A DNA stretch of 64,000 bases, taken from a virus. Its lineage: Duplodnaviria > Caudoviricetes. Below are positions 3 to 18,924 of the stretch, in pieces. Under the pieces are notes generated by a model. It saw nothing but the letters and a program-made list of their open reading frames with translations, did no database searches and was not told the origin of the DNA. The stretch is taken from positions 21,940 to 85,939 of IMG/VR virus record IMGVR_UViG_3300034059_000003; one strand, 5' to 3'. The translations under genes and the position numbers were made by a program. Every line of letters begins with the position of its first letter. Position 1 is the stretch's first letter.

Positions 3-3000
3 TATCCTTATCTGTCTTCTTTCTTTCAGCCGGCCAAGGATCAATCTTATTTCATCAACACGTTTACGATATTCTTCTTCAGGACTGAATTTAGAATTAA
101 CAAGCGATTCAAATAAACTATCATTGGCTTTATCAGTATATTCTGAGATAGAAAATATCTTCGGACTTTTCTCAACAATTTTTTGATAAACATTCTCATC
201 AATACCGGCATTCTTAAGTGCTTCTCTATCATTTAAGAATGCTTTTATCATATTAAGATAAGATGAAACCTCAACAAACCGGTCCATATCTTCTTTCTCT
301 CCAAGGAACTGATTCGGAATCCAGACTGTCATCAAGTCACGAAACTTAATATCGGGATACTGAAGTTTAAGAAGAAATGCATATATCATTACCTGAAGTT
401 TTGCTCTCTCTCTTTGGTTGTCTGAGATGTATGTATCTTGTAATCCATACATCATTGGTTCCATTGTTGTTTTTATTCCAAATGCATTACCAGATTTCCA
501 ATCCTTTATACTCCATCTACCATCGGCATGACCAATCAAAGCATCCATTGTACCACCGAAACCAAGTAAGTCACTCCAAATTGTTACTTCAGGAAGATAA
601 ATAATATCCCTCAAGGCTTCTGGGATGTCTTTACTCAATACATTAACACCGGCATGTTTAAATACTTTCCTTAATACTTCCGGATCTTCTATCCAAGAGT
701 AATGTTCTATAGGTGTTTTCCCTTCCCCGCGGGATGCAACATTATTTATTTCTTTAAGGATGTCTTCGTCTTTTTCTCCAAGATGAAATAATCTATTTGC
801 TGTGCGTTTAAGGAAAAGGTGAAGAATGTTTCCTTTTATCTGGCCGAGTTTAGAATTAAGTTCCATACGATCTTTATATTGATCGTAATCTTCCATATTC
901 CCTTGTTCAGTGAGTAATTTATGATCATGTGTCCTGTCACCCCATTTAACATCAGCCAGGTGTTGTCCAAAAGTAATATTAGGATCTATCTTTTTGTTCG
1001 TAAACATAGATATGAATCCACCGGCATAATTTGTTATCCTACGGATCTTCTTTGCCATTCCCTCAACAATATAGAATTGTCCCTCAGTTCCGTCAGGAAG
1101 TTTCTCTACTTTAATCTTCTTAGCATTCTCTTTTATATTATCCGCAAGGTCAAGAATGTTTTTTCTGGTAGTATCTGAATCATTCCTTATCCCGACTTCT
1201 ACTTCAACTTCATATCCTAACTTGGTGTCCTTATAATAATTACCTGATTGACTTCTATATAAAATACCTTCTTTTGTAAATGAAGGAGTATGAGGACTAT
1301 TCAGAATTATCTGTAGGAGATCATTTGAGAACTCTTTTGCAAGAGAAATGAACTCCATAATCTTATCAAGGATTCGTTTTAACAATGATCTTTCTTCCTG
1401 GGATCTCTTTAATGAATCAATCATTTTTGCAAACTCATCATTCGATAATATCTCAGCAATAAACTCAAACTGATTTTTCATACCAAGTAGATTCATCGAA
1501 GATATTGAATTGATATCTTGGGGATATCCATTTTCAGAAAGGAATTTATCTACTGTTTTCTTTGCAAAAGGTTTAACAATAAGTTGCCCGGTTGTCTGAT
1601 CAACATCAAAATATTCATTAATTAACTTCAATATATCCTTACTAAATGATTCATTTTCTAACATTCCTGTTACAGTAATACCATGGATCATCTCATGAAA
1701 AAGAATCTTATCAACCTGGTCAATATCAATAGGCCCATTATGAATATAAAGATTAACAAGGTCAAGAACTATTGATCCATCAACAGAATATTCACCATAT
1801 CTACCAATACCACTAAGTTCTCCAAATTTTATTGTCATTCCCTGTTTTACAATTCTGTCCTTTAGTGTTGTTAAAAGATTGATTCTCCGTTTACTTTTAC
1901 TACGAAGTATCATATTATCAATTAAAGTACTGATGGATTCTTCTTCTGAATATAATTTCTGTACACTTTCAATCTCTTCCGTTATATTATCTTCCTTTAT
2001 ATTCTTGAGGAATTGTTTTGACCCATATATTACTTCTTGATCAGTATCAGAAATATTGTTGGTTTCAAAATATGACTTGATATTACTTTCATTGGCTTTC
2101 AAGAAGAAACTATGTAATGCATTCACATCAACATATATCTGAATACCGTCATACCAAAGTCTTTCTCTTAAGACCTGAATACCACCAAATTCTTCATTAT
2201 TTATTTTGCTCTTAAACTCCCGGGCCTCATTTGTGCTATGCTTTCCATAAAGAATACGACCACGACCTTTATTGTCATTTCTGAATGGTGTACCATGTTT
2301 CAACATCCTTGTCTTGAGATCTATGATAACATGTTCAGTTGCCATAGTAAATTTATCATAGGAATGTTTTGTAATCGCTTCTTTTACTGGTCTGATAATA
2401 TAACTGTTATCAAGTTTCTTTATGATCTTACAATATTGTTTATTGACGCGCGTTACATCGTGGAACTGAGTAAGGCTGACAATATCTCCTTCTTTTAATC
2501 CACTGCCATAATATTCAAATTCTTTGGTATTAAAATCAGCAACACGGACGTTATAGATACCATTGTTCTTAAAACTTTCATTGATATCAAATCCGTTTTC
2601 AAGAACCTCATCAGATGTATTATAGAATTTTATTGTAGAACTACGATCAACAACCTGGTAGTAAACGATAGGATCTATTGCATTATTAAGACGGAGATAA
2701 ATTCTTTTCACTCCGGCATAACTACTAACAATAAATCGTGGCATTTCTTTTTGGTCCGGATTTGAATAACTTCTATCATAGAAATACTCATTTGTCTTGC
2801 CACCATAGAAAGGAAGTGTTTGGCCGTATTCATTTACAAAAGATCCCTTTTTGATTGGTTTTCCCAACGTTCTGAATATATCAGGAATCATCTCTGAGTT
2901 ATTTAATACCAATTGGACCATGAAGTCGTCCTGGATCTTACTCCAATTCTCTTCATACTTATCCCCGGTGAATTTATCCATCAGTTTATTCAGGAGATTA

Positions 3001-6000
3001 TCAACACTATAGTATAGGTTCTCTGGTAGGATAGTACTATAATTCATTATCCCAAACTTAAGGCCCCAATTCATTATACCATAACTGACAAACTCACGTT
3101 GTAAGTCAGAATAATCAGAGTTACTCTTTGGTTCAGTATTCTTTTTGACAGTATATTTCCCTGTCTTTTTATTCCAGGATACTTCATACTTATTTAGTTC
3201 AAAGAATCCGTTTCGTGCATCAAGGATATCCATCTGATCCATGTTGGATCCACCCTCAAATGTTAATTCATATGTCTTGGTGACAGAATTATAAGATTGA
3301 CCTAATCTCTCAATAAAAGTATTTGAAATAGGATCTCCATCTTCTGTTCTTTCCTTGTTTATATAATTCTTCAGTGCTGTTATCTTACCAATGAAAATCT
3401 GATTAACAGCCTTTGGCCCGGTTAAAATTCGTTTCTCATCACCAACAGTATATTCAAATGAAACATCTTTTTCAATTTTGTATTCCCCTGAGAATATTTC
3501 ATTTGACATAAGATAGTTGATCAACTCATCTCTTATGACAGATTTTCCTTCTACCTCGTTCAGCCCAAACTTACCGAGTTGTCTATAAGCCTGGTTGACT
3601 ATATCTTCAAACTCAGGATAATATTTCTTTATTGAAGAAGTAAGAAGTTCATCAAATTGTCTTACTCCTTTATAAATTTGAAGTATATGTTTCGACTTTA
3701 AAAAGAATTCACTAATATCAAATGGAAATGATGAAACACCAAATGCAGGCAATGTACCATCTTCTTCTATAACTCCGAAAAGTTCAGTTGCTACATTCTT
3801 TATTTTATCGATATCATTTTTTGTTACAGGTAATGTTCGTGCAATCTTTAACCACTGAGCTAATTTGCCAATTGAATTACCAACATTAGTCATATTCTGG
3901 AATGTCTCAATGATATGCATCTGAAACATTAAAGCTTTGGCTGCCTTGTTATTTTTCTTTCCATCTTCAGAGATGGCATTATCATAGTCATCAATACTAT
4001 TACCACTACGGATCCCGGTAGATATATTTTGAGGATTTATCTCTGACTCCACTGCTTCATATCCGGAAAGTTTTTCTACGATCTGTTTCTTAATCATGTC
4101 AAAACTTCTTCCGTTTGCATAATCAAGTATCGCCGGCTGTTGTAAAATATCAACGGTATCAGTAAGATTTATTCCCAGTGTTCTCAAAGATATAAATGCA
4201 TGAATTGTCCTCATGTTTATATTGAGAGTAGGTAATGCCAACATTTTTATATTGTCTATCGCGGCATTAATGAAACCGTCAATAGAAACAAACAAACTCT
4301 GGCCGGTATTATCGAACAATGTAAGTTCATCGTATATCCTTAATTCTCCTTTTGAATCCCTTATTCTGACAATATTATTCTCATCTCTAAGTTTTGGATT
4401 TGATTGATTCTCTCCGGTACGCATCATATAAGCAAGGGTCTTTGCGGCATTACCAAAAACGCCGGTCGCTACAGCTGCGCCAAAGATTGTACTATGAGTA
4501 TCTATCTGATCATTATAATTTGAGAGATCAAGTTTATTTTCTCTTGGTCTGTAATTCGGATTTAATACACGAGTCTTCTGATCCATTATCTCCTTAAGAG
4601 GTATTGGAGAAAGCATACTTTCTATATTCTCCTGGTTACTGACAAGATCAAGTAACTCATGAATAACGGCATTCTTTCTGAAACCAATTTCTTCATAGAT
4701 ATCTTCAAAGTCTTTCGTGTTACGAATGAAAGTCATCCGGCCTTTCTTCTCTTTATATCCAATGTATTCACCTCGTTTGTTCTTTGCTCTCTTGATAATG
4801 AATAAAGAGTCAACGTCAAAGTCAGATCCATGAAGTCCAACCAGTAAGTCCGGTGCAATAATCACATTGATGTTTGGTGTCTTATAGAATCCAACAACTT
4901 TTATTGCTACTGCACTATGTATATCAGATGAAGGAATACGGAATCCCAGGAGATCTGGAAGATCAAAATAATCCTCTGCATTTTTGCCTTCGGCCAATGC
5001 CTGTTTTATAGAGTCTTCATATTCCTTTGGGAGAAGTCCTTCCGGGATTATACACTCTGCAACCATCCTACCGGTATCTGTCCTGATATATTTCAGTTTA
5101 TTCTTTGGTCCGTCACTTACCGGTAATCCATATTTCCTTACTCCAAACTCACTTTGGAGAACAAGTTTGGATCCAGGGAAATCAAACTCTACAATACTAT
5201 CCTTTAAATGACTTGATAAAGCAATGATTACTTTGTCAACGATAGACGGAAAGTTTATACTTATCTCTGATGACAAGATATCATGTGTATTCTCATTACC
5301 TTTTCCTCTCAATAACGATGTGATATTTGTCTTTATCGACCTTTCATCATTGAATTTGGAGAAGAACAACTCATTACCAAGTCTTGATAATTCACTCAAA
5401 TGATAATAGATCCTATCAGCTCTCTTTGTATTCTGTGATAAAACACTTGCAAGATATATTAACTGTGATGGTTGACTTGTCTTGCCTGATATCTTTGACT
5501 TTGGATCCATCTGGATTCTGTACTGATCATTATTGATATCAAATAACATTGAAGGATCAGCGGCATAATTCTCTGATAATACACTTTCGAATGGAGCTGC
5601 AGACTCAGGAATACCAATTTTTATTGCTGATCTGAATACGGCTTCATCGGCATTATTTCTACGCATATTTGCCAGAAGTATACCAAGAGAAGGAAACTCC
5701 TCAATAAGTTCATCAGATAAAACAATAGATGAATATTTTATTCCTCTCGCTACCCCTTCTTCTGATACAGAATAAACTACGGGCTTTAATATCTTATGTA
5801 AAGAAAATTCTGTAGCAAAACCTCCGTTACGAAGTTCTTCAAATCTTTCAGGAGTCATAAATCCCTGTCCATCCCAAATGTTTATATTCTCCTTGAATTT
5901 CTCCATTAGGATAGGTAATTTGGCCTTTTCTTCATCTGTTTTGAGTACAGCATCAAGTCTGGCTTCGATATCCTTAAATCCTTTTATTTGGTCTTCTATG

Positions 6001-9000
6001 ACAAGGAACCTCGCTTTTTCTTTCATACCAAAGGTTTTGTTTACTAAACCCTTTGACCCGGGGGCAGTGGCTAAAGAGAAACGACGCATGACATCTTCCT
6101 CATTAACGAACTGATTGTTTTCGCCAAGTATAATCTGATTTAAGAAAAATGAATTGACATAGTTATTTGCAATAAAAGAGTGTGTCAATGGTAATATCTG
6201 TTCCATGGTCCAGTTATATGAACCATCAGGTTTCATCGACCTGGACTCACTTCTTCCATAATGTTTAGAATTTCTGAATGAATCAAGATCAACTTTGTCA
6301 GGAGAGACAATCTTTTCGAGATTCTTATTTGAGAAAATCTCTTTGTCAAGAGGAACCCTGTTCCGGATAACACGTTCTGCAAGTTTCTTTGCCTCTTCAG
6401 ATAATAATGATTCTACAACTTGAGAATATTTGTCAATCTCCGTTTCACTTAAAGGTTTCGCTACAATATCACGACCTTTAAGAGCTTTCTCAAGTAATCT
6501 GAAATTGATAAATCTCCCGGTATTATTCTGTTTTATACCCGATAAGACAGGTTCGGAATTAAATTGTCTTATTGCCTCTGATATTGCTACTCTTATTTCA
6601 GCATGAGTAAGAACGTTTACCTCAGCACCAAAGACATTTTCTCTCTCATTTGGATATACAAACTGGAAGTATCTTTCATGACCTGACTTTGAATAACGAA
6701 TGCGGTCAAGGAATCCGGCAACAAATCCTCTCAAGATAAAGTCACCTTCATTTTCTTTAGATTGTTTTATTCCTGTTATCTTCCCGGTATAATCCTTAAA
6801 TTTTATACCATCAGAATCAACAATATCATGTATTTTATTCTTCCCGGAAAGGAAAATGTTTTTCTTAAAGTATTCTGTTGTCAAATATTGTGGAAGACTC
6901 AGGGTTAAATTACCGGTCTTAAGAATCTTATTGTTCGCAATATTGAATAGAATATTATTTGCCCATGATGTAGGACTCCAAATATATTTTCTTTTGCCCT
7001 TAACATCTCTCACGCTGGTTGCTCTTACATATGCACTACTGACACTCATTAATTTTGATAAATTACCTGACATCTTTCCTTCTTCATCAAGTAATAAACC
7101 AATAGTCATTGGGACTTTCATCACTTCTCCAGTATCTTCATCCGTAATTTCCTCAACCTCTCCTATCCTATATATTGCACCACTACCCGGCCTTGTAAAG
7201 AATCCTTCTACGTCATAATATATTTGCTGGACATTTGTATTTGGAATACTATTGGCAATAGATCCCATACCCATCTCCTTAAGGAATACCTTTATGAACT
7301 CATAAGGATTAGATTTATACTTCTCGATATTTGGCCTTAACCAATCTTTCACAAACTTCTCAAGAGACCTCTTATCAGGAAAATAATTTCTGATGTTCTC
7401 ATTCAATAATGATCCGATACTTTTATGTGGTCCAATATATGATCCGGGTATATATCCAACAGCATATGTACCACCAGAGGTATGCGTTTTTTCAATGATA
7501 TAGAGATTTTTCTGTTTCTGATTATTGAATAGATTGACAAGACTCTTGTAACTATCTATTGCCTGGAATTTTTTAAAATGTCCAATAATCTCTTCTTCAG
7601 AAACATTATTTGTTTTTGCAATCCTTATTATAAACTCACGGGTTGATTCATTGGATCTCCTTTTATCAACAGTGGCACCATTTTGCATGGCCCCGGCCTC
7701 ACCATAAACATTGACAAGTTCTTCATCCGATATTACAAACATATCTTCAGTAACAAACTTCATATTATTCCCTAATGTCTCACCTCTTTCTCCGTAAATA
7801 TTACCAGAGGCGATAGTATGTAGTTCAATGATCTTGTTTAATAAGAATTCTGTTCTGTGATGTTTACCAAGGTTCTCCCATGCTTTTCTTAACTGATCTA
7901 TAAACCTATCGTTTTCCGGCTGAAGTCCTTCGAATAGTTGAAGAGTCCGGACATAAGCCTCTCTCCAATTCATAAATCTGTTATTGTCAATAGGAATATT
8001 ACTGAGAAAGTCCTTAACAGCCATACTCTGTTTCTTTACTTCCCAATTGACTTCATCACTTTCAATAGTATGTTGACTTATTCCACCATCAGTTTCGTCG
8101 TCCTCTTCATACTGAACAAGGATTTCTTCTGTTGAAATATCCATATTAACAACAATCTCATCTGCCTCATCAAGACTCCAATTTGGATATAAATCTTCTA
8201 TAATCCTGTCGTAATTTTCAATCGCCTTACCATAATATCTGAGTTCCCTGGCTATATTTAAAATCTCTCCTTCAGCAAGATCCTGTTGTACAATCATATT
8301 ATCAAAATTGTCTTTGATAATCAAATGATCGTTTTTTAAATTCCCAATGGTAATATCTTTAACTTCTCTTCTTGTTATAGGATAACCGGCAAATCCTTTT
8401 TCATATACATCATAAAATTCCTGTTGTATTATTGCCCGGGCATTTCGATATGTCTCAAGAGCCCCTTGAAAATCGTCGTTGTCATTTCCATATAGATTTA
8501 TGATATTCTTCATGGACCTTGTTATCCCTGCAGAATTTTCTTTTGTCGTAATAAAATATCCACTTTCGATAGTCTCAAAGAAACGATCAAAGTTCTTAAG
8601 ATTGAGATTTATGAATCCAAAGGTTGATGCAAGCCAGTTGAAGAATCTTTTAAGCACCTCGTTTATTCTTGATAGTTTTTTGGATTGATAATCCTGAAAC
8701 TTAATAGCAAGTTGTTCTTCAATTTCAATAATGCCTTTGTCTTTATATTCCGGGAATTGTTTTTTAAATGATTTAACAATAAGATCTTGTTCGTTTTTCG
8801 TTATATACTCATTGAATATCTTATGGAAAGCTTCATGTCTAATTATCTTCTCGAATGTACTACCATTCTTTTCCATTGCCCAGATTACTTCATCATGGAA
8901 TACTCCATAAGCATTATCACCGGCAATTTCATCAATAACTATTTTTTCAGCAAAATGAATAACATCTTTTCCTTGAGTAGTTATAGATGGGATAAACTTA

Positions 9001-12000
9001 GCAAGTAATGATCTGGCTTCAGAAAGAGTTAATTCTTTACCAAGATCCATTCCGGGAGTTGCACGCATCAAACGTTTCTTCCTGTTCTTAATCTTTTCCT
9101 GGATCTTATCATAGGTATTTTCAAAACCTTTCTTTATTGAATCTTTCTTCGCATCTTCCTTTGAAATTGGTTCATCAAGTTTGATCTGGATCCTGGTTCG
9201 GATTATATCTTCAAGTTTTGTTCCAAGGATATCTTCAAGTTGTTCAAGATTGGAATTAATATTTTTCCCGAGTTCATTTACACCATAGATACCACTCATT
9301 TTAAGAGGTAGAGTAAGAGTCTTGTGTACTCCGGCGTTATCAAAAGACAACAGATTGTTAAGATCAGATATCTTCAAAGGTTCTTTTACATATTTCTCCT
9401 TTGTTATATTCAACTCTTCTCTTGATAATCCTTGTATATCACTACCTGCATTACCCCAATCAATAAGAACCTGTTCAATCTTTGCTATATTCTCCTGATC
9501 ATCAAGTCTCTTTGATTCCTTATCAATAAATGAACTATAAGAAGGAAGTTCGACACCAATAGCTTTTGCTTCTTCTTGCATGTCTTTCCATACAGTCTTA
9601 ATGTAATTGATATATTCAGATGTTGAGGTTTCTTCTGCAAAAAGACTTTTACTTTCTGATGATATAACCACACGTTTCTTTCCATTACGAAAGAGATTTG
9701 TTTTATGTGATATAGAGAATGGTAATTTATTATTTGCTCTTGCAAGAACATTCATTCTTTTCTGCACTATTCCTTCTCCGGCGATCAAACCAGTATCATA
9801 AACATATTCCTTTTCATCTTCATTCTTGCGGTTTGTCATTAAGATATAACCACCATTACTTTTTGGATGCTCTTTAAACTCATAACTCGTATTCGGATCA
9901 GTCTTCTTATTCTCACCGAGATACTCCCACATTGCGTCTTCATCAATAACTTCTTTCTTTGTCCTGCCCGGACCATAGAAAGCAGGTATCAATGTATTGG
10001 ATAAGTCATATAATAAATCAAATTGCTCTTTCGTTAATATAGGAAAACCTCTTTCATCTCTTTCTTCGAGATAAGTATTGTATGAATACCTATTTACTTT
10101 TGCCGGAACAATTTCATCATCGATAACATCAAAGTTTCTCTTGAACCTTTTTATCAATTCGTTGGTTTTTGGATCTCCCCAGGTACCAATACCTTCAGAT
10201 TCGAGTTTCTTTACCGTATCTCTGAATTCAATTATTGGTTGTAAGATACTGTCAGTATTTCTTATCTTCCTTGCATTAAGACGGATAAATTGACTCTCAG
10301 CTCCTTCTTCTTTGCCGGCTCTCATAGTCTTACGTTCAATATCAAGATAAGGGACACCGGGAGTATGGTTACCAAGACGGTCATCATTACGAGCATATAT
10401 CTTAACTGAGAACTCAAGATTTTCATTGGCAAATGTCTGTTTGACTTTTGATATTAATGAAGAAAGAAATCCAGGTCCGGAAGAAGTGATATCATCTGAA
10501 TATTTATATGAAAGAGGTTGTGCTTTTTGTATTACTCCTTCAGCAAGAATAGTCGGTCCATCTTTTATCTGAAGAATACCGGTATTACCTTGAGATAATC
10601 TGTTTGAAAGTTCCTTACCATCTTGAGTTTTTGCTGCACTCATCTTATATAATAAGGTTTTACCAAAGTCAGTTGATAAAAGCTCTTTCTCTGAGAGAAC
10701 ACCTATCACACTCCATAAATCATTCTCAAGAGGTGTATCATCAATATTAAGATGTTGTCCAATTATATGAACTTCATATTTCTTAACATTGGCATTCCAA
10801 ACTTTGATGTATTTTACTTTTGATCCTGTTCTTACTGGAGCCATTTTAATTTCTTCCCATGATTGGGAAATAGGTTTTATTGGATAGTAAGATGGATATT
10901 CTACATCATGATATTCAGTATTACCAGATCCTACCTCAACAAAAGTTGCATTATCTGTTGGAGTATTCTTATCACTCAATGGTTCTTCTTCTCTTGCATC
11001 AGTCTCACTTTGTTGTGAAGCGATATCTGAAGGATCTCCTTTTTCAATATTGACGATCTGTGGTGTAGATATCTTAACACCTTTCATGTCATCTCCCAAA
11101 ATATTCAACTCAAAGGCAAGACGGTTGGTATATTCCTGAGCAATTTCTTTATTACGAGATTCATTATTCTCTTTCTTTATTTCGTCAATAGTATATTTCC
11201 ATGCATCAGGATCCATGTATGACTTGATGAAGATATATGATCTGGCCCGGGACAACGCAGTGTACATTCCCTCGTTGTATTTCCGATTAAATTCAAAGTC
11301 AACTGGATTTATATCGATATAAACTTCATCATAAGAAAGACTTGCAACTTCATGATAAAACATTACAGGTACACCTGTCTTTTCATACTGTCTTTTAAGA
11401 ACAGGATTACTTACAACAACCACCCGGCTGCGATTATTATTTTTCTTATGAACCTCAAGTTGGTCAAATAGTCTCTGTTGTATATTGGATACATGAACAC
11501 CATCAGCCGGCGCACCAATATCTGCAGAAGCTGTACCAAGAAATGACTTTATTTTACCTGGATAATCAAGGAATGAATTTTGTGCATGCAATACGGATGA
11601 GTTACCGCTACGGAACACAGAAGTCAAAGGATTAAACTCACGAATATTTGACATCTCATGCCTGAAAGAATTTATTGCGGGAAATGCATCATCAAGACTT
11701 GCTACTTGTGAAGGATCTCCGAGAACATATATTCGTATTGGAATTGCCCTTGTTTCATTTGCTGAAACAATTCTTTCGGCAAGAGTATGAAGTTCTTCAG
11801 CATTTAATCTGGCAACCTCATCTATTATAACAAGTTTATTGTTTTCATCTTTCAACATCTCATCAGTAAGATTACTAACAAGCATTGAGTTCTTCACTCC
11901 AGGAAGACTTTTCTTTAAAACTTCAAGAGCATTTTCATGTGTTGATAAGGCAATAAGAGATTCATGAGATATCCCAAGTAAATCAGGAAGATAGTTTGCC

Positions 12001-15000
12001 ATTAGATCCGTTTTGCCAGTATTATGAACAATAAAATCATTAGCAACATAGTTATGATAAGGAAATTGCATTATTATATCATATGTATCTTCATATTTAT
12101 ACTTTTCTATTGATATTATTTTTTCTTCGATAATTTTTGAAAATCTCATATTTGTTATATTATTATAACCATGTAATTTATCGTGTTCTTGTTTTGTTAT
12201 AATAACAAGATTATCTAAATCATCATTTATGGGATTTTCATCTTTATGATGAACAATTAATTTTGGATCAAGAAATTTATAAATAGATGAACTATTAGAA
12301 TTAGTTTTTAATTCATTAATAAATTGATTTACACCAATATTATTCATTTTTGCTTCAACAACTAATCTACAATATGGGAGTCTACCATAATCTTTATTAT
12401 TAACTATTTTAGTATATTTATTTGGATGATAAATAATCCCATAAATTATTTTTCTTCTTAATCTTTTTGAAAGGTCTCGACCAGTTCCTTTTTTAAGGTC
12501 ACGAAGAAATACAATATCACCAATTTTTAATTCTGATAACTTTTTAAAACCATCAACACTTTGTCCAATGGTTCCTTTAGGAACTTTAAATGGATGTTCT
12601 ATTGTAACACATATATTTCTACCAGAATCTACTGTAACTTTATATGTTTGTTTTTTACCACTATAAATAATATCTATAATTTTATTATATCCAATATAGC
12701 CATCTAATAAACTTAATGTTTCAATTGGAATAATTTTATCCCAAGGTCTCCCACTTATTCCTTTTACTTTTATATTATTAAATTTATAATAAGCATATTT
12801 AACCGAATTGATTCTACCACTTACTCTATTTTTTGTTTTAAATGGTAATAATACATCCCCAGACAAACAACCGGCCAATCCTTTTATATAATACCATCCC
12901 CGAAACTTTTCTTCTTTCTTTTCTATAGGAGAATTCATTTCTACAACGGCCTCTCTTAATGTGATATGTTGTTGATTGTTTGGAGATAACTTTTTCTCTT
13001 TTATAACTGCAGATTCAAGACCTATCATTTCCTGAATAGTAATCTTAGACGTAAGCCTGTCTTTTAACCTTGATAGACCCATAATCTCGATATGCGCTTT
13101 TATAAGATCAGAGAAATCATCTTTATTTATATTTGGGTATACAAGATCAACATTATTTTGAACAGCATCGAGCAACTGGAACACATCTTTATTACGGAAG
13201 AATCTATCAATAGGACTTATCTTTTCTGTCTGAACACGGAATCTATCTATCTGTATTTCTATTAATCTATCAAAAGCACGAAAAGGACTTTTCTTATATG
13301 CCTTAAGGTCATCACTGACACCAGATGTTATTCCTTTCTCTTCAAGTTTTGTCCACTTAACGTAAACATCAATAAAATTATTAATTTTATCAAACTCTAT
13401 TTTTTTAAGGAGATCAGATAGTCTCTTAACTCCATTATTTGCATCTTTAACTCTTGATATTATCTTCTCAATAAATATTCCATCAAAAGAATAGTCTGTT
13501 TCATTAAAGAATGCCGACTTAGCAGTCTCAAGAATATTGTCGAGTTCCGTCTTTCCTATAATTTCTGAGACAGCATTAAATAAATCCTGATTGTATACAG
13601 AATAAGATTTTTTTTCACGATTAATTGATATACCAATAGCATTGAAAAGAGATCCGGAATACGATAACCTTGTTCTTTTATCAAGTGATTTTCTTGATTC
13701 TCCATTTTCAAAGGCCTTATTTCTTATTGCCTTTAGTTTTGGGAGTACTTCATCAATTGATTCAATATATCCTTTAAATTCACTTGTTGTTAATAGTTTC
13801 TTTCTTCCTGGTAATGAATAAACTTTTTTCCTGTCTTCGAGTTTTCTCAAAATATCATCAACATCATCAACCTGATCAAATACATCTTTATTACCATTAT
13901 ATGAAAGAAGAAGATCTTTTGCTTTATCTACAGGAGTATCTGCAAATTCACGTTGAAATTTGCGATATGCTTTTCTACGTGATGACATCTGTTTTTTATC
14001 TGTCTTAAATTGTTGGCCAGATTGTTCTGACATATTTTTTATTTCAGATAAAGAATTCTCAGCATCAGTTTGATCCTGACTCTTCTGTATATAATTATCT
14101 AACCAAACCTGGTCCGATTCTCTTTGTTTTGGATTAAAGTTAGAATTTGGAATTTTATTCCCGGTAGGAAATCCATCTACTGTTTCCCATACTTCTTCTG
14201 TATTGGTATTAAGTCTTTTCTGTCTTTCCGGAACTTGTTTTGATGCACGATCAACAGATTCGCGTCTCTTTGAAATAAGATTACCAACTTTATCAATTTC
14301 TTCTGCAGAATAAACTATTCCATCAGAAAGATGTGATCTTATAGTCCCAATAATATCTGAAAGATTCCTCTTGCCTTTTGCAGCATCTTCCATTGTATTA
14401 TTAAGTTCTGCTTTCTTATACGCTGCCTTACCTCTATCAAAATAATAGTTATACCTGGCACCAAAAACATTCGCAGTCTTTGTCCCATTGGTTACAGACT
14501 GAGAATATATTGGAGAGAATGGATCTTCGGGACCTTCAATATAAAGAAACTCATCCCTATCATATTGTGCTTTTAATTTATCATTTGATGTTGCTTTTGA
14601 ATCCTTATTTACTTCTTCAAAGTTCTTAAGAACATTATTATATTGATCTCTCTCAAGTTTAAATTCATCATAAAGTTTCTCTCTTGTCTTTTTGTTGAGT
14701 AAGTTATCAGATAACTTCTTACTATCAGCAATTAATCTCTTTACATCTTCTTTCTGTTTATCTGATAGCTTTTCATTAGAGAGATATTCTTCATACATAT
14801 TTCTTTTTACTTCTTCAGCAAAAAGAGTTTTCATTGCTACCTGTTTGAATTGTGTTTTAGTTCTATCACCGGAAAAATCTTCAGCATCAGAAACCTGAGT
14901 CCTTGCATTTTCAAAAGCCTTCCTTATTGGTGTAAGATCGGATTTTGTAAATTTCTTATCGTAACCAAGTTTTGCAAGTTCTTCAGGTATTTGTAAATCT

Positions 15001-16613
15001 CTTTGTAATAAAAGATCATCAACCTCATCAAGTGAACTCATTAAATCATCGGTTGCATACCAATAATATAATCTTGTAAGAGCATCATTATTAATTGTAT
15101 TTAGATGAAGATCATCGGCATTTATCGTTGCAACCATTGCCTCATCATACAGAAATTTATCATTGACTGTATGCATAAACATACGATTGACGGCATCAAG
15201 ATCCACTTCAGTCTTACCATTTTTATTGTAATACGATTCAACATCTTTTTCAACTATAGATCCATCTGGTTGTGTCTCTTCTACTTTATTGACAAATTTC
15301 TTATATGGTTTGGTTACATGATCAACATACCATTTATCATAACCACTCATATTCCTTTTAAGATGATCATAAAGTTCTTCTTCTTTTTCTATCTCAGCTT
15401 TTTCTCCTAATCCTTCTCTATATCCTCCAATGCTACCAAATAAACCTCCAACTAAAGAACCAAGAACAATATTCTTTTGTCCTTCTGTTGTGAATAGATT
15501 ATCAACCCATTCTGAAGCAAGACCAAGAGTATAGTCATCAAGATCCTGACCATATGATTCTTTTTTCTTGTTATATGTTTGTAGTGCATACTGCATTCCT
15601 TCTTCCCAAGGACCTTCAGTACTCATCGCAAGACCAGCATCAGTTAATGATTTTTTGAATAGGTTTATATCTTCAGATGCAATTCTCCCGGACCTTACGC
15701 CGGCTCTTAAATCTTCCGCAGTCTTTCCAACCCGACCAAACATAAATCTACTCTGTATATAGTTTGGAACAAGAAGAACACCAAGATTACCATTGAATAC
15801 ATTCGCAGCGCCTTCAGAAACTTTTGATTTTACCTTATCCTGTGATGCCGGATCAAGATCAGTATATTGCATTCCATATTCATTAAATGCAAGATTATTC
15901 CGTTCTGTATCTTGGAAATCTTTTGCCTCAAAACCAGCCTCTCCAATAGAGTTTAATACTGTAGATCCATACACCTTTGCTTTTTGTACCATCTGTGCAG
16001 TTAAACCAAAAGCCTTTGAAGATGCCGACGCAAGGGCACCAACGCCAGCGCCAGTTATATATGCTGATCCAAGAAAAGCAAGAGCATCAAAACCATCATC
16101 AAACCAGAATCCAGGATCTTTCATCTGTTGAAGAAGATTGCCATTACGACCTTGCCATGTTCTATATATTGGAAATTTCTCTCTTAATCCTTCATCGGCT
16201 TTACTCATTGCATTAACAAAACCATTATCCCAAATGACAGATGGATCGGCTGTTTCTGGATCAGAGAGATAGTCAACACCAAATGATATAGCACCGCCAA
16301 TATGACCAATATTCTGACCAACCTTGGGAACTAAACTTGCCCCACGAGAAACAAGACCACTTGTGAATTTACCAAAGAAAGGTTGTGCTGCAGCGGACAT
16401 ACTCTGTTCATCCCATACTGGTTGACCTTGACCGACAAGTTTTTTATATGGAGTTCTCCATGGTTCAAAACGAAAATAACCGTCACCGGTTGTATCTTTC
16501 ATAATATCTGAATCTATTTTCGGTTGTTCCTTTACTGGAAGATTTGATGAATCAAGTTCTGGTGTAGTAAATGAATCTTCATCAAATCCAACCCAAGTTC
16601 TTTTATTTGCCAT
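3..16613 (-). CDS. Giant virion RNA polymerase/ejection polyprotein, partial (>=5537 aa; runs off window start)
   Basis: ATG at 16613 (MANKRTWVGFDEDSF...) overlaps the stop of the upstream cargo gene. The same frame reads as protein at every point I translated: 16600-15400, 12900-11200, 8940-8700, 5900, 4800, 1700, 850-360 and 60-3. The track reports no ORF ending in this frame, which implies no internal stop. Motifs: GLAG/TGKT, VIIDE, GDPSQ, YTALSRA, HEAFH, DGQGF, RIP...GSDFDVD, HEMIH, GTMD...DWK...QVMIY. Confidence 0.93.
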   Translation of the reverse strand, partial: MANKRTWVGFDEDSFTTPELDSSNLPVKEQPKIDSDIMKDTTGDGYFRFEPWRTPYKKLVGQGQPVWDEQSMSAAAQPFFGKFTSGLVSRGASLVPKVGQNIGHIGGAISFGVDYLSDPETADPSVIWDNGFVNAMSKADEGLREKFPIYRTWQGRNGNLLQQMKDPGFWFDDGFDALAFLGSAYITGAGVGALASASSKAFGLTAQMVQKAKVYGSTVLNSIGEAGFEAKDFQDTERNNLAFNEYGMQYTDLDPASQDKVKSKVSEGAANVFNGNLGVLLVPNYIQSRFMFGRVGKTAEDLRAGVRSGRIASEDINLFKKSLTDAGLAMSTEGPWEEGMQYALQTYNKKKESYGQDLDDYTLGLASEWVDNLFTTEGQKNIVLGSLVGGLFGSIGGYREGLGEKAEIEKEEELYDHLKRNMSGYDKWYVDHVTKPYKKFVNKVEETQPDGSIVEKDVESYYNKNGKTEVDLDAVNRMFMHTVNDKFLYDEAMVATINADDLHLNTINNDALTRLYYWYATDDLMSSLDEVDDLLLQRDLQIPEELAKLGYDKKFTKSDLTPIRKAFENARTQVSDAEDFSGDRTKTQFKQVAMKTLFAEEVKRNMYEEYLSNEKLSDKQKEDVKRLIADSKKLSDNLLNKKTREKLYDEFKLERDQYNNVLKNFEEVNKDSKATSNDKLKAQYDRDEFLYIEGPEDPFSPIYSQSVTNGTKTANVFGARYNYYFDRGKAAYKKAELNNTMEDAAKGKRNLSDIIGTIRSHLSDGIVYSAEEIDKVGNLISKRRESVDRASKQVPERQKRLNTNTEEVWETVDGFPTGNKIPNSNFNPKQRESDQVWLDNYIQKSQDQTDAENSLSEIKNMSEQSGQQFKTDKKQMSSRRKAYRKFQREFADTPVDKAKDLLLSYNGNKDVFDQVDDVDDILRKLEDRKKVYSLPGRKKLLTTSEFKGYIESIDEVLPKLKAIRNKAFENGESRKSLDKRTRLSYSGSLFNAIGISINREKKSYSVYNQDLFNAVSEIIGKTELDNILETAKSAFFNETDYSFDGIFIEKIISRVKDANNGVKRLSDLLKKIEFDKINNFIDVYVKWTKLEEKGITSGVSDDLKAYKKSPFRAFDRLIEIQIDRFRVQTEKISPIDRFFRNKDVFQLLDAVQNNVDLVYPNINKDDFSDLIKAHIEIMGLSRLKDRLTSKITIQEMIGLESAVIKEKKLSPNNQQHITLREAVVEMNSPIEKKEEKFRGWYYIKGLAGCLSGDVLLPFKTKNRVSGRINSVKYAYYKFNNIKVKGISGRPWDKIIPIETLSLLDGYIGYNKIIDIIYSGKKQTYKVTVDSGRNICVTIEHPFKVPKGTIGQSVDGFKKLSELKIGDIVFLRDLKKGTGRDLSKRLRRKIIYGIIYHPNKYTKIVNNKDYGRLPYCRLVVEAKMNNIGVNQFINELKTNSNSSSIYKFLDPKLIVHHKDENPINDDLDNLVIITKQEHDKLHGYNNITNMRFSKIIEEKIISIEKYKYEDTYDIIMQFPYHNYVANDFIVHNTGKTDLMANYLPDLLGISHESLIALSTHENALEVLKKSLPGVKNSMLVSNLTDEMLKDENNKLVIIDEVARLNAEELHTLAERIVSANETRAIPIRIYVLGDPSQVASLDDAFPAINSFRHEMSNIREFNPLTSVFRSGNSSVLHAQNSFLDYPGKIKSFLGTASADIGAPADGVHVSNIQQRLFDQLEVHKKNNNRSRVVVVSNPVLKRQYEKTGVPVMFYHEVASLSYDEVYIDINPVDFEFNRKYNEGMYTALSRARSYIFIKSYMDPDAWKYTIDEIKKENNESRNKEIAQEYTNRLAFELNILGDDMKGVKISTPQIVNIEKGDPSDIASQQSETDAREEEPLSDKNTPTDNATFVEVGSGNTEYHDVEYPSYYPIKPISQSWEEIKMAPVRTGSKVKYIKVWNANVKKYEVHIIGQHLNIDDTPLENDLWSVIGVLSEKELLSTDFGKTLLYKMSAAKTQDGKELSNRLSQGNTGILQIKDGPTILAEGVIQKAQPLSYKYSDDITSSGPGFLSSLISKVKQTFANENLEFSVKIYARNDDRLGNHTPGVPYLDIERKTMRAGKEEGAESQFIRLNARKIRNTDSILQPIIEFRDTVKKLESEGIGTWGDPKTNELIKRFKRNFDVIDDEIVPAKVNRYSYNTYLEERDERGFPILTKEQFDLLYDLSNTLIPAFYGPGRTKKEVIDEDAMWEYLGENKKTDPNTSYEFKEHPKSNGGYILMTNRKNEDEKEYVYDTGLIAGEGIVQKRMNVLARANNKLPFSISHKTNLFRNGKKRVVISSESKSLFAEETSTSEYINYIKTVWKDMQEEAKAIGVELPSYSSFIDKESKRLDDQENIAKIEQVLIDWGNAGSDIQGLSREELNITKEKYVKEPLKISDLNNLLSFDNAGVHKTLTLPLKMSGIYGVNELGKNINSNLEQLEDILGTKLEDIIRTRIQIKLDEPISKEDAKKDSIKKGFENTYDKIQEKIKNRKKRLMRATPGMDLGKELTLSEARSLLAKFIPSITTQGKDVIHFAEKIVIDEIAGDNAYGVFHDEVIWAMEKNGSTFEKIIRHEAFHKIFNEYITKNEQDLIVKSFKKQFPEYKDKGIIEIEEQLAIKFQDYQSKKLSRINEVLKRFFNWLASTFGFINLNLKNFDRFFETIESGYFITTKENSAGITRSMKNIINLYGNDNDDFQGALETYRNARAIIQQEFYDVYEKGFAGYPITRREVKDITIGNLKNDHLIIKDNFDNMIVQQDLAEGEILNIARELRYYGKAIENYDRIIEDLYPNWSLDEADEIVVNMDISTEEILVQYEEDDETDGGISQHTIESDEVNWEVKKQSMAVKDFLSNIPIDNNRFMNWREAYVRTLQLFEGLQPENDRFIDQLRKAWENLGKHHRTEFLLNKIIELHTIASGNIYGERGETLGNNMKFVTEDMFVISDEELVNVYGEAGAMQNGATVDKRRSNESTREFIIRIAKTNNVSEEEIIGHFKKFQAIDSYKSLVNLFNNQKQKNLYIIEKTHTSGGTYAVGYIPGSYIGPHKSIGSLLNENIRNYFPDKRSLEKFVKDWLRPNIEKYKSNPYEFIKVFLKEMGMGSIANSIPNTNVQQIYYDVEGFFTRPGSGAIYRIGEVEEITDEDTGEVMKVPMTIGLLLDEEGKMSGNLSKLMSVSSAYVRATSVRDVKGKRKYIWSPTSWANNILFNIANNKILKTGNLTLSLPQYLTTEYFKKNIFLSGKNKIHDIVDSDGIKFKDYTGKITGIKQSKENEGDFILRGFVAGFLDRIRYSKSGHERYFQFVYPNERENVFGAEVNVLTHAEIRVAISEAIRQFNSEPVLSGIKQNNTGRFINFRLLEKALKGRDIVAKPLSETEIDKYSQVVESLLSEEAKKLAERVIRNRVPLDKEIFSNKNLEKIVSPDKVDLDSFRNSKHYGRSESRSMKPDGSYNWTMEQILPLTHSFIANNYVNSFFLNQIILGENNQFVNEEDVMRRFSLATAPGSKGLVNKTFGMKEKARFLVIEDQIKGFKDIEARLDAVLKTDEEKAKLPILMEKFKENINIWDGQGFMTPERFEELRNGGFATEFSLHKILKPVVYSVSEEGVARGIKYSSIVLSDELIEEFPSLGILLANMRRNNADEAVFRSAIKIGIPESAAPFESVLSENYAADPSMLFDINNDQYRIQMDPKSKISGKTSQPSQLIYLASVLSQNTKRADRIYYHLSELSRLGNELFFSKFNDERSIKTNITSLLRGKGNENTHDILSSEISINFPSIVDKVIIALSSHLKDSIVEFDFPGSKLVLQSEFGVRKYGLPVSDGPKNKLKYIRTDTGRMVAECIIPEGLLPKEYEDSIKQALAEGKNAEDYFDLPDLLGFRIPSSDIHSAVAIKVVGFYKTPNINVIIAPDLLVGLHGSDFDVDSLFIIKRAKNKRGEYIGYKEKKGRMTFIRNTKDFEDIYEEIGFRKNAVIHELLDLVSNQENIESMLSPIPLKEIMDQKTRVLNPNYRPRENKLDLSNYNDQIDTHSTIFGAAVATGVFGNAAKTLAYMMRTGENQSNPKLRDENNIVRIRDSKGELRIYDELTLFDNTGQSLFVSIDGFINAAIDNIKMLALPTLNINMRTIHAFISLRTLGINLTDTVDILQQPAILDYANGRSFDMIKKQIVEKLSGYEAVESEINPQNISTGIRSGNSIDDYDNAISEDGKKNNKAAKALMFQMHIIETFQNMTNVGNSIGKLAQWLKIARTLPVTKNDIDKIKNVATELFGVIEEDGTLPAFGVSSFPFDISEFFLKSKHILQIYKGVRQFDELLTSSIKKYYPEFEDIVNQAYRQLGKFGLNEVEGKSVIRDELINYLMSNEIFSGEYKIEKDVSFEYTVGDEKRILTGPKAVNQIFIGKITALKNYINKERTEDGDPISNTFIERLGQSYNSVTKTYELTFEGGSNMDQMDILDARNGFFELNKYEVSWNKKTGKYTVKKNTEPKSNSDYSDLQREFVSYGIMNWGLKFGIMNYSTILPENLYYSVDNLLNKLMDKFTGDKYEENWSKIQDDFMVQLVLNNSEMIPDIFRTLGKPIKKGSFVNEYGQTLPFYGGKTNEYFYDRSYSNPDQKEMPRFIVSSYAGVKRIYLRLNNAIDPIVYYQVVDRSSTIKFYNTSDEVLENGFDINESFKNNGIYNVRVADFNTKEFEYYGSGLKEGDIVSLTQFHDVTRVNKQYCKIIKKLDNSYIIRPVKEAITKHSYDKFTMATEHVIIDLKTRMLKHGTPFRNDNKGRGRILYGKHSTNEAREFKSKINNEEFGGIQVLRERLWYDGIQIYVDVNALHSFFLKANESNIKSYFETNNISDTDQEVIYGSKQFLKNIKEDNITEEIESVQKLYSEEESISTLIDNMILRSKSKRRINLLTTLKDRIVKQGMTIKFGELSGIGRYGEYSVDGSIVLDLVNLYIHNGPIDIDQVDKILFHEMIHGITVTGMLENESFSKDILKLINEYFDVDQTTGQLIVKPFAKKTVDKFLSENGYPQDINSISSMNLLGMKNQFEFIAEILSNDEFAKMIDSLKRSQEERSLLKRILDKIMEFISLAKEFSNDLLQIILNSPHTPSFTKEGILYRSQSGNYYKDTKLGYEVEVEVGIRNDSDTTRKNILDLADNIKENAKKIKVEKLPDGTEGQFYIVEGMAKKIRRITNYAGGFISMFTNKKIDPNITFGQHLADVKWGDRTHDHKLLTEQGNMEDYDQYKDRMELNSKLGQIKGNILHLFLKRTANRLFHLGEKDEDILKEINNVASRGEGKTPIEHYSWIEDPEVLRKVFKHAGVNVLSKDIPEALRDIIYLPEVTIWSDLLGFGGTMDALIGHADGRWSIKDWKSGNAFGIKTTMEPMMYGLQDTYISDNQRERAKLQVMIYAFLLKLQYPDIKFRDLMTVWIPNQFLGEKEDMDRFVEVSSYLNMIKAFLNDREALKNAGIDENVYQKIVEKSPKIFSISEYTDKANDSLFESLVNSKFSPEEEYRKRVDEIRLILGRLKERRQIRI
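360..850 (-). other. RecB-like PD-(D/E)xK nuclease domain within the giant ORF
   Basis: In-frame KGNILH (~810-830), PEV, GFGGTMDAL, IKDWKSG (DWK at 495-503) and LQVMIYA (~380-400). This is the order of RecB-family nuclease motifs. Confidence 0.75.
1400..1800 (-). other. Zincin-like metalloprotease motif 2 within the giant ORF
   Basis: ILFHEMIHG (HEMIH at 1683-1697), followed downstream by NQFEFIAEILSNDEF, which offers a candidate third-ligand Glu. Confidence 0.7.
3900..6300 (-). other. crAss-type (QDE-1-related) two-barrel RNA polymerase core within the giant ORF; boundaries approximate
   Basis: WDGQGFMTPE (D at 5871-5873), then LKPVVY, then GFRIPSSDIHSAVAIKVVGFY...APDLLVGLHGSDFDVDSLF with the catalytic DxDxD at 4809-4823. 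Confidence 0.9.
8700..8940 (-). other. Zincin-like metalloprotease motif 1 within the giant ORF
   Basis: AYGVFHDEVIW...IIRHEAFHKIF (HEAFH at 8823-8837), followed by IEEQLAIKFQDY. Confidence 0.7.
11230..12900 (-). other. Superfamily-1 (RecD/UvrD-like) helicase domain within the giant ORF, interrupted by an intein
   Basis: Splicing restores Walker A GLAG|TGKT. Walker B LVIIDE (~11817-11835), motif III YVLGDPSQ, motif IV LTSVFRS and motif VI MYTALSRA (~11245-11270) follow in order. Confidence 0.85.
12021..12869 (-). mobile_element. Intein (283 aa) with HNH homing endonuclease, inserted in the helicase Walker A motif
   Basis: Starts CLSGDVLL, has block B VTIEHPF and HNH motif IVHHKDENPINDDLDNLVIITKQEHDKLH, and ends HNYVANDFIVHN followed by Thr(+1). 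It is visibly more AT-rich than its flanks. Confidence 0.92.
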
Positions 16614-18924
16614 TTGCAGCAGTATTATAATCTTCATTTAATAATTTAAGATCCTGCGTTATATCCTGTCCTTTCTTTTTCTTCATTTCAAGAAATGCTC
16701 TTGCTGCCATATACCGCATATGTAGATCATCAATATCACTTGAATAAGAACCAAGTGGAGCTGTCATATATCCTTGTGGATTATTCTTTGAATCAAATGG
16801 TTTTTTGATAGGACTCTCACCTTCCATTTCCCTTGGATTACCTTGGAAAACATTTAATTCAAGTTGTTCTGTCCTTGGATTCCTTCTTACACTCATCCAT
16901 GTATCATTACGGTTAGGACCCATTTTACCTTCAATATTATTCCAACGATCAACTACTTGAAGTTGTTGACCAGGACCAATATTTCTTACTGCGAAAAGAT
17001 CACCCTGACCTGCTCTATTTGGAAGATTATAAGAAAATGCATTATTACTAAACCTTTGTGGTTCTACAAGTTCATTTGGACCTTCAATATAGTATTGTTT
17101 ATCTCCTATTGTTACAGATAACATTCCCGGACCATATTGACTTGTTCTTGGATCTACCATTCCATAAACAAAGAATGCTTCATCCTTCTTAGCAATTGAT
17201 TTCTTTTCATCTTTATCAAATTCATGATTTGGATTTTCTGGATCAACCCATCTGCCACCAATTAATGCAGAACTAAGGCCACCTTCTCCTGTAAATCTTC
17301 CTTGTGTATCCATTGTAAGACCACCAAGTTTTTCAGATACATAAGCCTGGTCTTCAGGATCGAAAGCAATAACCTGGCCAAAACCAACAGTTTTACTTTG
17401 TTCTTTTTCGAATTTTTTTAGATTCGATTTTAACCACATGTTTTCTTTTGGTGTAAAATCCTTAGATCCTTTAATTAATAATTCTGTTTCACTTTTAAAT
17501 GGATTATCCGGATCATTGAAACCATAAGCAAGGGCTGCATTTATTGTTTTTGACTCTGAAAAATCATTATCAAAAGCATTCTCATTAATATTTAACTTAT
17601 CTAATGTCTTATCAATTGTCTTTAATACATCTTCTTTTTCTTCTTCAAGTGCTTTCTTTTCCCATTTACCAGTTACTTCTACTTCTTTCTTCGCAAAGTA
17701 TTCTTCAAACATTTTCTTTGTACCATAAGCATCTTCGACTAATCTGGTTGTTAATAATGCATTACGCATCATTTTTGAGTCACTACCAATTCCAAGAGGC
17801 GTCTTAGCATCAATCTTTCTCTCTTTCCCATCTTCACCAATTACATTTACAGAATGAAGTCCAAGGAGTGCTTCGGGATCATCTTTTACTTTTGCATAAT
17901 ATTCAAGATTATCCCCATAATTTAACAACTTGGTATCTTTAAATACTTTCAATGTTGACATTTTAGAAAGATCTCCTTCATTTGTTCCATCATCAAAAAA
18001 GTAACCAGGATTCATTGGTTCAAGAGGAAGATCAAATGTCATATCTATTTGTTGAATTTGACTTTTCTTTTTTCCTGAAGTTTTGGTTTGTCCAGGAAGA
18101 TATTCATAATTGTCTTTGAAACTTCTTGTTTTATATTTCTCTTCTTCACGAGAAATAATTTGATTAATATAATCTTCATTCCACTTATCAGGAGAAGTTG
18201 TTGCTTTTAGATAACGCGATCCAGGAGTTTCAGTATTGAGTATCTGTTGTACAAGTTGTTTTCTGTTTGCTGCAAGTTTCTCAGGACTTCTCTGTTCATA
18301 GGTGGTCGTTTTCATTGCAGCAACATCAACACCATTTGGACCAGGCACCCAAATTGTTGATGGTTCTCCACTACTTGTTTCTGTTTCTACCTGTCTATAT
18401 GATTCATTTACTTCATCAAGTATATTAGCATATTGTGTTGGTCTTTGATATTGGCTAAATCCTTGTCCAGAAATTAACTGTCTTACATCGCCGGTTTCAG
18501 GATTGATATTTGGATCAGCTTCTCTACGATATAGTGGATCTGAAATCCATCTATCATATAATGATGCTGCCTCACGATCTTGTTGAATAGTTTTTACATC
18601 TGGATCTGACCGGAACTCAGCATTTATTTTTGATAACTCTCTTAATGCAGGTATTGAATATGATGTTTCACCATAATCTTGCATCCATTTATTTACCTTT
18701 TGTTTATACTTATCTGTAACAAGTGGAGTCATTCCTTTTGTCTGATATCCTGGAATAAGACTACCGGTGAGTGCATTTGTTTCTTCTGCAAGTGCAATTG
18801 CCTTTTCGCCTCTCTGTAATTTTTCCTGTTCAAAGTTTATCATTTCACTATATGGACTTTTATCTTCCACAAATTGTGAAGTATAAACAGGAAGTGCTGG
18901 TGTATAAAATCTATTGATACCCAT
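16603..18924 (-). CDS. Cargo/ejection protein (773 aa)
   Basis: Lies between the muzzle/cargo genes and the vRNAP gene, as in crAss-like phages. Hydrophilic, helical-looking sequence; no enzyme motif seen. Confidence 0.6.
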   Translation of the reverse strand: MGINRFYTPALPVYTSQFVEDKSPYSEMINFEQEKLQRGEKAIALAEETNALTGSLIPGYQTKGMTPLVTDKYKQKVNKWMQDYGETSYSIPALRELSKINAEFRSDPDVKTIQQDREAASLYDRWISDPLYRREADPNINPETGDVRQLISGQGFSQYQRPTQYANILDEVNESYRQVETETSSGEPSTIWVPGPNGVDVAAMKTTTYEQRSPEKLAANRKQLVQQILNTETPGSRYLKATTSPDKWNEDYINQIISREEEKYKTRSFKDNYEYLPGQTKTSGKKKSQIQQIDMTFDLPLEPMNPGYFFDDGTNEGDLSKMSTLKVFKDTKLLNYGDNLEYYAKVKDDPEALLGLHSVNVIGEDGKERKIDAKTPLGIGSDSKMMRNALLTTRLVEDAYGTKKMFEEYFAKKEVEVTGKWEKKALEEEKEDVLKTIDKTLDKLNINENAFDNDFSESKTINAALAYGFNDPDNPFKSETELLIKGSKDFTPKENMWLKSNLKKFEKEQSKTVGFGQVIAFDPEDQAYVSEKLGGLTMDTQGRFTGEGGLSSALIGGRWVDPENPNHEFDKDEKKSIAKKDEAFFVYGMVDPRTSQYGPGMLSVTIGDKQYYIEGPNELVEPQRFSNNAFSYNLPNRAGQGDLFAVRNIGPGQQLQVVDRWNNIEGKMGPNRNDTWMSVRRNPRTEQLELNVFQGNPREMEGESPIKKPFDSKNNPQGYMTAPLGSYSSDIDDLHMRYMAARAFLEMKKKKGQDITQDLKLLNEDYNTAANGK

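Follow-up and report, generated by a model that had tools for sequence, protein, structure and literature searches.

A giant open reading frame of a crassvirus genome that probably encodes a fused virion RNA polymerase cargo with a predicted intein

The locus and its giant open reading frame

The stretch of DNA analysed here (hereafter, the window) comprises 64,000 nucleotides (nt) of the IMG/VR virus record IMGVR_UViG_3300034059_000003 (Duplodnaviria; Caudoviricetes), that is, bases 21940-85939 of a single 85,939-bp contig. At its left edge lies one very long minus-strand open reading frame (ORF), which we consider highly probable to be the fused form of the virion RNA polymerase (RNAP) cargo block of Crassvirales, i.e. 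one late gene for a 733-kDa precursor.

3..16613, minus strand: giant ORF, in-window part (start ATG at 16611-16613; alternative in-frame ATG at 16635-16637)

Counted from the alternative ATG (window 3..16637), the frame holds 5,545 codons in the window, with no stop in its translation and an open 3' end. The initial annotation, made from the window only, had described a frame open from 16613 to the window edge, and its start and residue numbering proved correct; no in-frame stop or frameshift was found in the stretches that it had left untranslated. It had also held that the chain was still incomplete at 5537 amino acids (aa), and extension into the full genome bore this out: there the ORF occupies 19395..38576 (22% of the genome), reaching 2,544 nt beyond the left window edge to a stop at 19395-19397 (L001:396-398), and encodes 6,385 aa if started at the 16613 ATG, or 6,393 aa if started at the first one (16637). 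The N-termini of relatives (e.g., MAKKRTW, MVAKRTWI) align with the 16613 start, which the database copy P0002 uses too. Residue numbers of the giant protein are counted throughout from the ATG at 16637 (i.e. +8 relative to the 16613 start).

The giant ORF is a real and complete gene. Its unusual length is the sole reason to ask whether it could be a misassembly, or a decayed pseudogene never translated as a single chain, and nothing else was found that speaks for either. Logan contigs were available from two independent metagenome studies (one from 2025, on wastewater, and one from 2019); they cover all of L001:200-19800, no gap, joint or indel was seen in them, and a single 95,905-bp contig spans the entire giant-ORF stretch. 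Furthermore, relatives at 56-57% identity are collinear with the giant protein over its full length (homologues range from 30 to 57%), and the catalytic motifs are conserved all along the chain. An artefact is thus exceedingly improbable, and both the misassembly and the pseudogene readings were rejected on the strength of the two-study contigs and the full-length collinear homologues.

The sole difference between the genome record and the public contigs is one substitution, T3399K: the record's G at L001:9382 (window 6443) is a T in each of the four public runs, so that residue 3399 is Lys there instead of Thr, and the record may carry a minor variant or an error at this position. Among the public runs listed as carrying the locus there were no RNA datasets.

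Seven modules along one chain

The predicted mass of the protein is 733 kDa for the precursor and 700 kDa after removal of an intein (see below). From the N- to the C-terminus we distinguish seven modules: a gp67-like domain (named after the protein of Cellulophaga phage phi14:2), a superfamily 1 (SF1) helicase that contains the intein, a first zincin-like domain (zincin 1), a two-barrel RNAP, a second zincin-like domain (zincin 2), a RecB-type nuclease and a gp65-like C-terminal domain. Those that lie in the window, together with the segments they contain, are as follows.

15201..16385, minus strand: N-terminal domain, aa 85-479 (BLASTP 9e-23 to phi14:2 gp67 residues 74-456; 3e-6 to the Kehishuvirus 2,310-aa gp47-like protein)
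16029..16085, minus strand: Gly/Ala-rich hydrophobic segment, aa 185-203 (the sole 19-residue window with a Kyte-Doolittle value >1.5)
15423-15476, minus strand: second glycine-zipper-like segment, ~aa 388-405
11226..12020, minus strand: SF1 (RecD/Dda-like) helicase core after the intein, aa 1540-1804 (Pfam Viral_helicase1 26.2 bits, cut-off 21; AAA_30)
8619..9035, minus strand: zincin-like domain 1, aa 2535-2673 (HEAFH at aa 2601-2605, window 8823-8837)
3483..6389, minus strand: two-barrel virion RNAP core, aa ~3417-4385 (DGQGF at aa 3589, window 5859-5873; catalytic DFDVD at aa 3939, window 4809-4823)
1338..1997, minus strand: zincin-like domain 2, aa 4881-5100 (HEMIH at aa 4981-4985, window 1683-1697; conserved Glu 5058 and 5062)
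354..875, minus strand: RecB-type PD-(D/E)XK nuclease, aa 5255-5428 (D5365; D5379-W-K5381, window 495-503; Q5415...Y5419)

The motifs that the initial annotation had named (helicase Walker A, HEAFH, DGQGF, DFDVD, HEMIH and DWK) are all present and conserved in homologues, at aa 1253 (GLAG) and 1540 (TGKT) for the two parts of Walker A and at aa 2601, 3589, 3939, 4981 and 5379 for the others; a test of the domain string that it had read from them (helicase, zincin, RNAP, zincin, nuclease) bore it out. The N-terminal Gly/Ala hydrophobic segments that it had pointed out are likewise real and conserved, being kept in the consensus of alignment A5, and a role for them in translocation is only a guess. 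The N-terminal domain itself was found in 684 representative clusters (E<=1e-3), always at the N-terminus of its carrier proteins.

The helicase core shows motifs I (TGKT), II (DE), III (GDPxQ) and VI (YTAxSRA). Residues G1541, K1542, D1606, E1607, G1640-D-P-x-Q1644 and Y1792...S-R-A1798 are invariant in alignment A5, and the Walker A motif is conserved in 40 relatives.

For the RNAP, a profile built from nine relatives (A4) and searched against the PDB matched 6VR4_A (phi14:2 gp66) with E=1.9e-28 over gp66 residues 726-1828. The structure was reached by profile only, since the single-sequence PDB search with three large pieces of the protein recovered nothing but the intein and a match to TPRKB, the latter set aside as chance. 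BLASTP nonetheless links aa 3417-3984 to gp66 (E=2e-8) and to the Kehishuvirus RNAP (E=2e-12), and among the homologues DFDxD is present in 99 out of 99 and D[AG]QGF in 97. As judged by the profile match, which includes the catalytic DFDxD, this is a crAss-type RNAP of the phi14:2 gp66 / QDE-1-like kind, and the same match to 6VR4 points to a fold with two double-psi beta-barrels.

Nearly all homologues have exactly two HExxH motifs, ~1,340 residues before and ~1,040 residues after DFDxD. In zincin 1 the H, E and H of the motif and a Glu ~36-40 residues after HEAFH are invariant (alignment A1), and RHExFHK is conserved in 46 relatives. Its AlphaFold2 (AF2) model has a core with a predicted local distance difference test score (pLDDT) of 79-91, for which VIA-align returned PPEP-2 (Z 6.8), the anthrax lethal-factor catalytic domain (Z 6.7) and also PprI, SPRTN and ArdC as neighbours, while Foldseek with the same model gave no match at E<=0.001. 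Zincin 2 corresponds by position to the HEIMH zincin of phi14:2 gp65; its AF2 model (pLDDT 82.5) has as VIA-align neighbours the lethal factor (Z 7.6), minigluzincins (7.1 and 6.5), a PhiM1 ejectosome protein (5.5) and also Wss1, and its profile matches 9sfn_G, a solved 'Internal virion protein' (E=8.5e-5).

The nuclease is matched by a PHROG exonuclease family (E=8.5e-7), and PF12705 is precomputed on many homologues; its motif residues are invariant or nearly so in alignment A4, with D[WM]K present in 56 relatives. No cysteine cluster of the Cas4 type was seen in it, the mature giant protein having two cysteines in all. Beyond the window edge, aa 5928-6365 match phi14:2 gp65 (BLASTP E=3e-8) and define the C-terminal domain.

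No family of Pfam, PHROGs or NCBIfam matched the N-terminal domain, either zincin region, the RNAP or the C-terminal domain. In a tblastn search of 50,697 GenBank phage records, aa 1-3000 recovered phi14:2 gp67 only and the last 2,193 aa recovered nothing.

An intein in the helicase P-loop

The initial annotation was right about the presence of the helicase Walker A motif and overlooked the HNH intein that interrupts it.

12870..12881, minus strand: N-extein half of Walker A, GLAG, aa 1253-1256
12021..12869, minus strand: intein of 283 aa, aa 1257-1539 (Pfam Intein_splicing 38.8 bits, cut-off 35.8)
12180-12263, minus strand: HNH homing-endonuclease motif in the intein, aa ~1459-1486

The hallmarks of inteins are present, namely Cys1 (C1257), the TxxH block (VTIEH), a terminal HN1539 and a +1 Thr (T1540), and further matches were obtained to NCBIfam intein models and to the gp41-1 intein in the PDB (E=7e-4). 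Because the insert splits GLAG from TGKT, the Walker A motif is intact only after its removal: deletion of aa 1257-1539 in silico yields YIKGLAG-TGKTDL, which matches the YLKGLAGTGKT of relatives. By these criteria, including a host motif restored upon excision, the insert is an intein, and its splicing is predicted. None of the 98 other homologues compared has an intein in the helicase (all show a gap there). Inteins have been noted in crAss-like genomes by Yutin et al. 2021 (PMC7886860), and the one described here suggests that a selfish element can sit in the P-loop of a packaged cargo enzyme and be tolerated there.

A separate intein was observed in the large terminase (TerL) gene of the same genome (window 52825-56061, minus strand), whose product reaches 1,078 aa because of an intein of its own with a LAGLIDADG endonuclease (Pfam Intein_splicing, LAGLIDADG_3). 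With the HNH intein of the helicase, the genome therefore harbours at least two inteins, and their endonucleases differ in type; crAss-like phages are already known to have inteins in TerL (PMC7886860).

Fused and split relatives

Relatives were collected by a word-indexed search with the RNAP region, which gave 99 proteins of 3,516-7,577 aa that were classed by BLAST coverage. At least 41 homologues, all from metagenomes, are fused from the N-terminal or the helicase part through the C-terminal domain (5,136-7,577 aa); among the 99, another two classes span the N-terminus to the RNAP (39 proteins) and the RNAP to the C-terminus (17 proteins). The closest relative is 57% identical. All seven modules are detectable by BLAST in 21 homologues, and the helicase, RNAP and nuclease occur on one chain in 42 of 98.

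The split relatives show where the chain can be divided. Two were inspected: in the first, genes for 2,363 and 3,811 aa share a single base, and in the second a 4,900-aa gene is separated by two bases from the 1,305-aa gene that follows. The natural gene-fission points fall at aa ~2220-2550 and at ~4710-5115, next to the zincin domains.

These comparisons lower the novelty of the domain string, which the initial annotation had proposed as particular to this lineage, since many crAss-like contigs carry the same string and a fused polyprotein is already in the literature: some crAss-like phages have a 'single huge polyprotein' according to Yutin et al. 2018, as cited by Drobysheva et al. (bioRxiv 10.1101/2020.03.07.982082), and PDDEXK domains in large proteins of the transcription block were noted by Yutin et al. 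2021 (PMC7886860). The fused cargo giant is an already described kind of object in crAss-like phages, and the features specific to this copy are the intein and, along with it, the complete set of seven modules.

An interruption of another type was seen in one relative (L008:20709-21598), in which the RNAP ORF breaks within the catalytic motif (…HGSD) and resumes ~890 nt on with FDVD. As a LAGLIDADG_2 ORF lies between the two RNAP halves, this would be a group I-type intron within the DFDxD codons; interruptions at the DFDxD motif have been mentioned for Zeta-group phages (PMC7886860).

Genomic setting

The genome is that of a crassvirus (Crassvirales), as the signature genes for the major capsid protein (MCP), portal, TerL and muzzle are all present. 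PHROG matches were obtained for the MCP (6.8e-99), portal (3.4e-94) and TerL (4.8e-110); the MCP is ~37% identical to those of phi14:2 and DAC15, its best matches being Steigviridae. The remainder of the window, read from the strand that also carries the giant ORF, is a crassvirus late operon that includes tail fibre genes. The muzzle gene closes the tail genes directly upstream of the cargo block, and is followed by a 522-aa gene, a 773-aa gene and the giant ORF, which ends 12 nt from a convergent block of small plus-strand genes.

20801..25900, minus strand: crassvirus muzzle protein, 1,699 aa (Pfam crAss_MUZ 487.8 bits; BLASTP match to phi14:2 gp71)
18935..20503, minus strand: 522-aa gene with a glycine-zipper segment, its sole cysteine being the last residue
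16603..18924, minus strand: 773-aa gene of no known family, a crassvirus cargo protein (C1/C2-like) by position, with synteny with phi14:2 and crAss001

The 773-aa protein has no cysteine, nor has the giant protein any near its N-terminus, so that the terminal cysteine of the 522-aa protein has no evident partner there. The 85,939-bp record has no terminal repeat and, given that a public contig holding the giant ORF measures 95,905 bp, may be ~10 kb short.

Packaging, ejection and processing of the chain

The giant protein is collinear with phi14:2 gp67, gp66 and gp65, all three of which are annotated from virion tandem mass spectrometry (MS/MS), and orthologues of the three are given as virion proteins by Drobysheva et al. 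(bioRxiv 10.1101/2020.03.07.982082). This collinearity lends good support, by homology, to the initial annotation's proposal of a fused chain carried in the virion.

Under this interpretation, the intein would splice out of the precursor, rebuilding GLAGTGKT and leaving a chain of ~700 kDa, which would be packed in the capsid beside the two smaller cargo proteins encoded upstream and pushed through tail and muzzle into the host along with the DNA. The delivered polymerase would then transcribe the early genes, i.e. the plus-strand block at 1-19.4 kb of the genome, and the helicase and nuclease would be delivered as its helpers, with template opening, end processing and counter-defence as possible roles. 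As for the zincins, both of which adjoin the sites at which the genes of relatives are split, their most likely role would be to separate the modules, or to activate them, following assembly or delivery.

The cysteines of the relatives bear on whether the chain is cut at all. Split relatives that stop after the RNAP have a cysteine within the last 6 residues in 34 of 39 cases, and those that start at the RNAP have one within the first 6 residues in 15 of 17, as opposed to none at either end in the 41 fused proteins. An independent set of 135 representatives gave the same picture (terminal cysteines in 52/64 and 18/26 split forms vs 0/5 fused ones). In split blocks, Cys is typically the final residue of the upstream protein and MxxC opens the downstream one; these are often the sole cysteines in thousands of residues. 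In phi14:2, gp67 has a cysteine only at residue 1797 (the last), gp66 only at 3 and 2179 of 2180, and gp65 only at 3. Many of the fused giants, for their part, have zero cysteines in >6,000 residues (two in the mature protein here). We found no mention of a terminal-cysteine tether or rule in the two key papers checked for it.

Such a pattern could mean that the ~700-kDa chain is left uncut, and is packed and ejected as one polypeptide (cf. the 3,500-aa virion RNAP of N4), with split phages tying their pieces head to tail via the terminal cysteines and the zincins acting only after arrival or on host targets. The junction-end cysteines of split relatives and their absence from fused proteins in both sets, the nearly exclusively terminal cysteines of the three phi14:2 proteins and the near cysteine-free fused giants all agree with it, and crAss001 virions are known to contain structural disulfides. 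On the other hand, a cargo-to-cargo disulfide is so far hypothetical, the terminal cysteines could instead bind metal or serve in docking, and the conservation of two junction-side zincins is left unexplained. We hold an uncut chain to be possible, if doubtful. It is partly compatible with processing by the zincins: were the thread kept during ejection and its parts released afterwards, the processing and continuity views could, hypothetically, be reconciled. Only tentatively would we extend this into a general rule, whereby the RNAP cargo of crassviruses enters as one thread that is tied by disulfides if split and covalent if fused. If it were general, one may hypothesize that the disulfides open in the reducing cytoplasm and that in fused forms the junction-side zincins bring about the release.

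Several points weigh against the reading of the ORF as a fused cargo whose modules are delivered together and then separated. The packaging and ejection of the giant protein are predicted from homology alone. Neither phi14:2 nor the crAss001-type phage has a Pfam match to a helicase or nuclease, and the roles of these two modules cannot therefore be read from those systems. Two of the family assignments fall slightly short of their thresholds: Pfam PDDEXK_1 scores the nuclease at 21.8 bits (0.2 below the cut-off of 22), and HNH_3 the intein endonuclease at 24.2 bits (just under 24.8), PHROG HNH families matching the latter at E=3e-6. The fold matches of the zincin domains are coherent (nearly all are zincins) but modest, with Z of 6.7-7.6 being under the tool's caution line of 8. 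As to separation, zincin 1 is retained even in relatives that are already split at its junction, and the terminal-cysteine rule suggests that selection keeps the continuity of the chain and not its separation.

The helicase and nuclease could also have little to do with transcription. The chain would in that case be a polyvalent anti-defence effector, with the helicase, nuclease and zincins as injected weapons against host DNA or defence proteins, a reading that its architecture suits, since packaged multi-enzyme 'polyvalent proteins' with zincin peptidases form a recurrent theme (PMC5512222). That the helicase and nuclease families went undetected in both studied phages argues that they are not required for RNAP function, and the protein-atlas neighbours of aa 1-1250 include LPD22 and LPD14 clusters (a weak lead, of low recognition; 1785). 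Yet no defence-related family was matched, none having been specifically tested, and the presence of helicase and nuclease on one chain with the RNAP in the 42 homologues mentioned above fits a polymerase-coupled role equally well. On balance we regard an effector as rather unlikely, and retain the fused RNAP cargo as the preferred interpretation.

The established picture of crAss-like phage biology is unchanged by these results. A fully mapped fused cargo, with module borders taken from natural fission points, aids the annotation of metagenome proteins of 4,000-7,500 aa now labelled 'hypothetical', and the fused vs cysteine-capped split forms constitute a natural experiment on how ~700 kDa of protein may thread its way through a phage tail and come free afterwards.

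Comparison with known systems

The cargo genes of phi14:2 and of the crAss001-type phages, with which the initial annotation had suggested a comparison, each gave collinear matches for all three proteins. In phi14:2 the layout is g071 (muzzle), g070-g068, g067 (1,797 aa), g066 (RNAP, 2,180 aa), g065 (1,421 aa) and convergent genes. The block thus has the same genomic position as the giant ORF (the late-strand end facing the early block) and the same module order, with collinear matches to gp67, gp66 and gp65. It differs in consisting of three separate genes instead of one, in having no first HExxH and no intein, and in the cysteines at its junction ends, of which the fused protein has none.

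In crAss001, the RNAP-associated cargo proteins gp47, gp49 and gp50 add up to 694 kDa (PMC10172136), as compared with 700 kDa for the spliced protein here. In Kehishuvirus, the 2,310-aa gp47-like protein corresponds to the N-terminal domain and has zincin 1 (HEAFH) at its end, a 2,412-aa protein is the RNAP, and a 1,349-aa protein matches the C-terminal domain; unlike here, Kehishuvirus/crAss001 have separate genes distributed over two strands and lack a second HExxH.

A more distant parallel is offered by the virion RNAP of coliphage N4, which is also a giant packaged and ejected polymerase chain with a zincin-like peptidase domain (PMC5512222). Its polymerase is, however, of the T7-like single-subunit type and not two-barrel, and no sequence relationship exists outside the zincin theme; packaged polyvalent proteins with processing zincin peptidases were described by Iyer et al. 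2017 (PMC5512222). The fused homologues from metagenomes, finally, are the same kind of object as the giant protein described here, from which they differ in that the HNH intein is found only in this copy.

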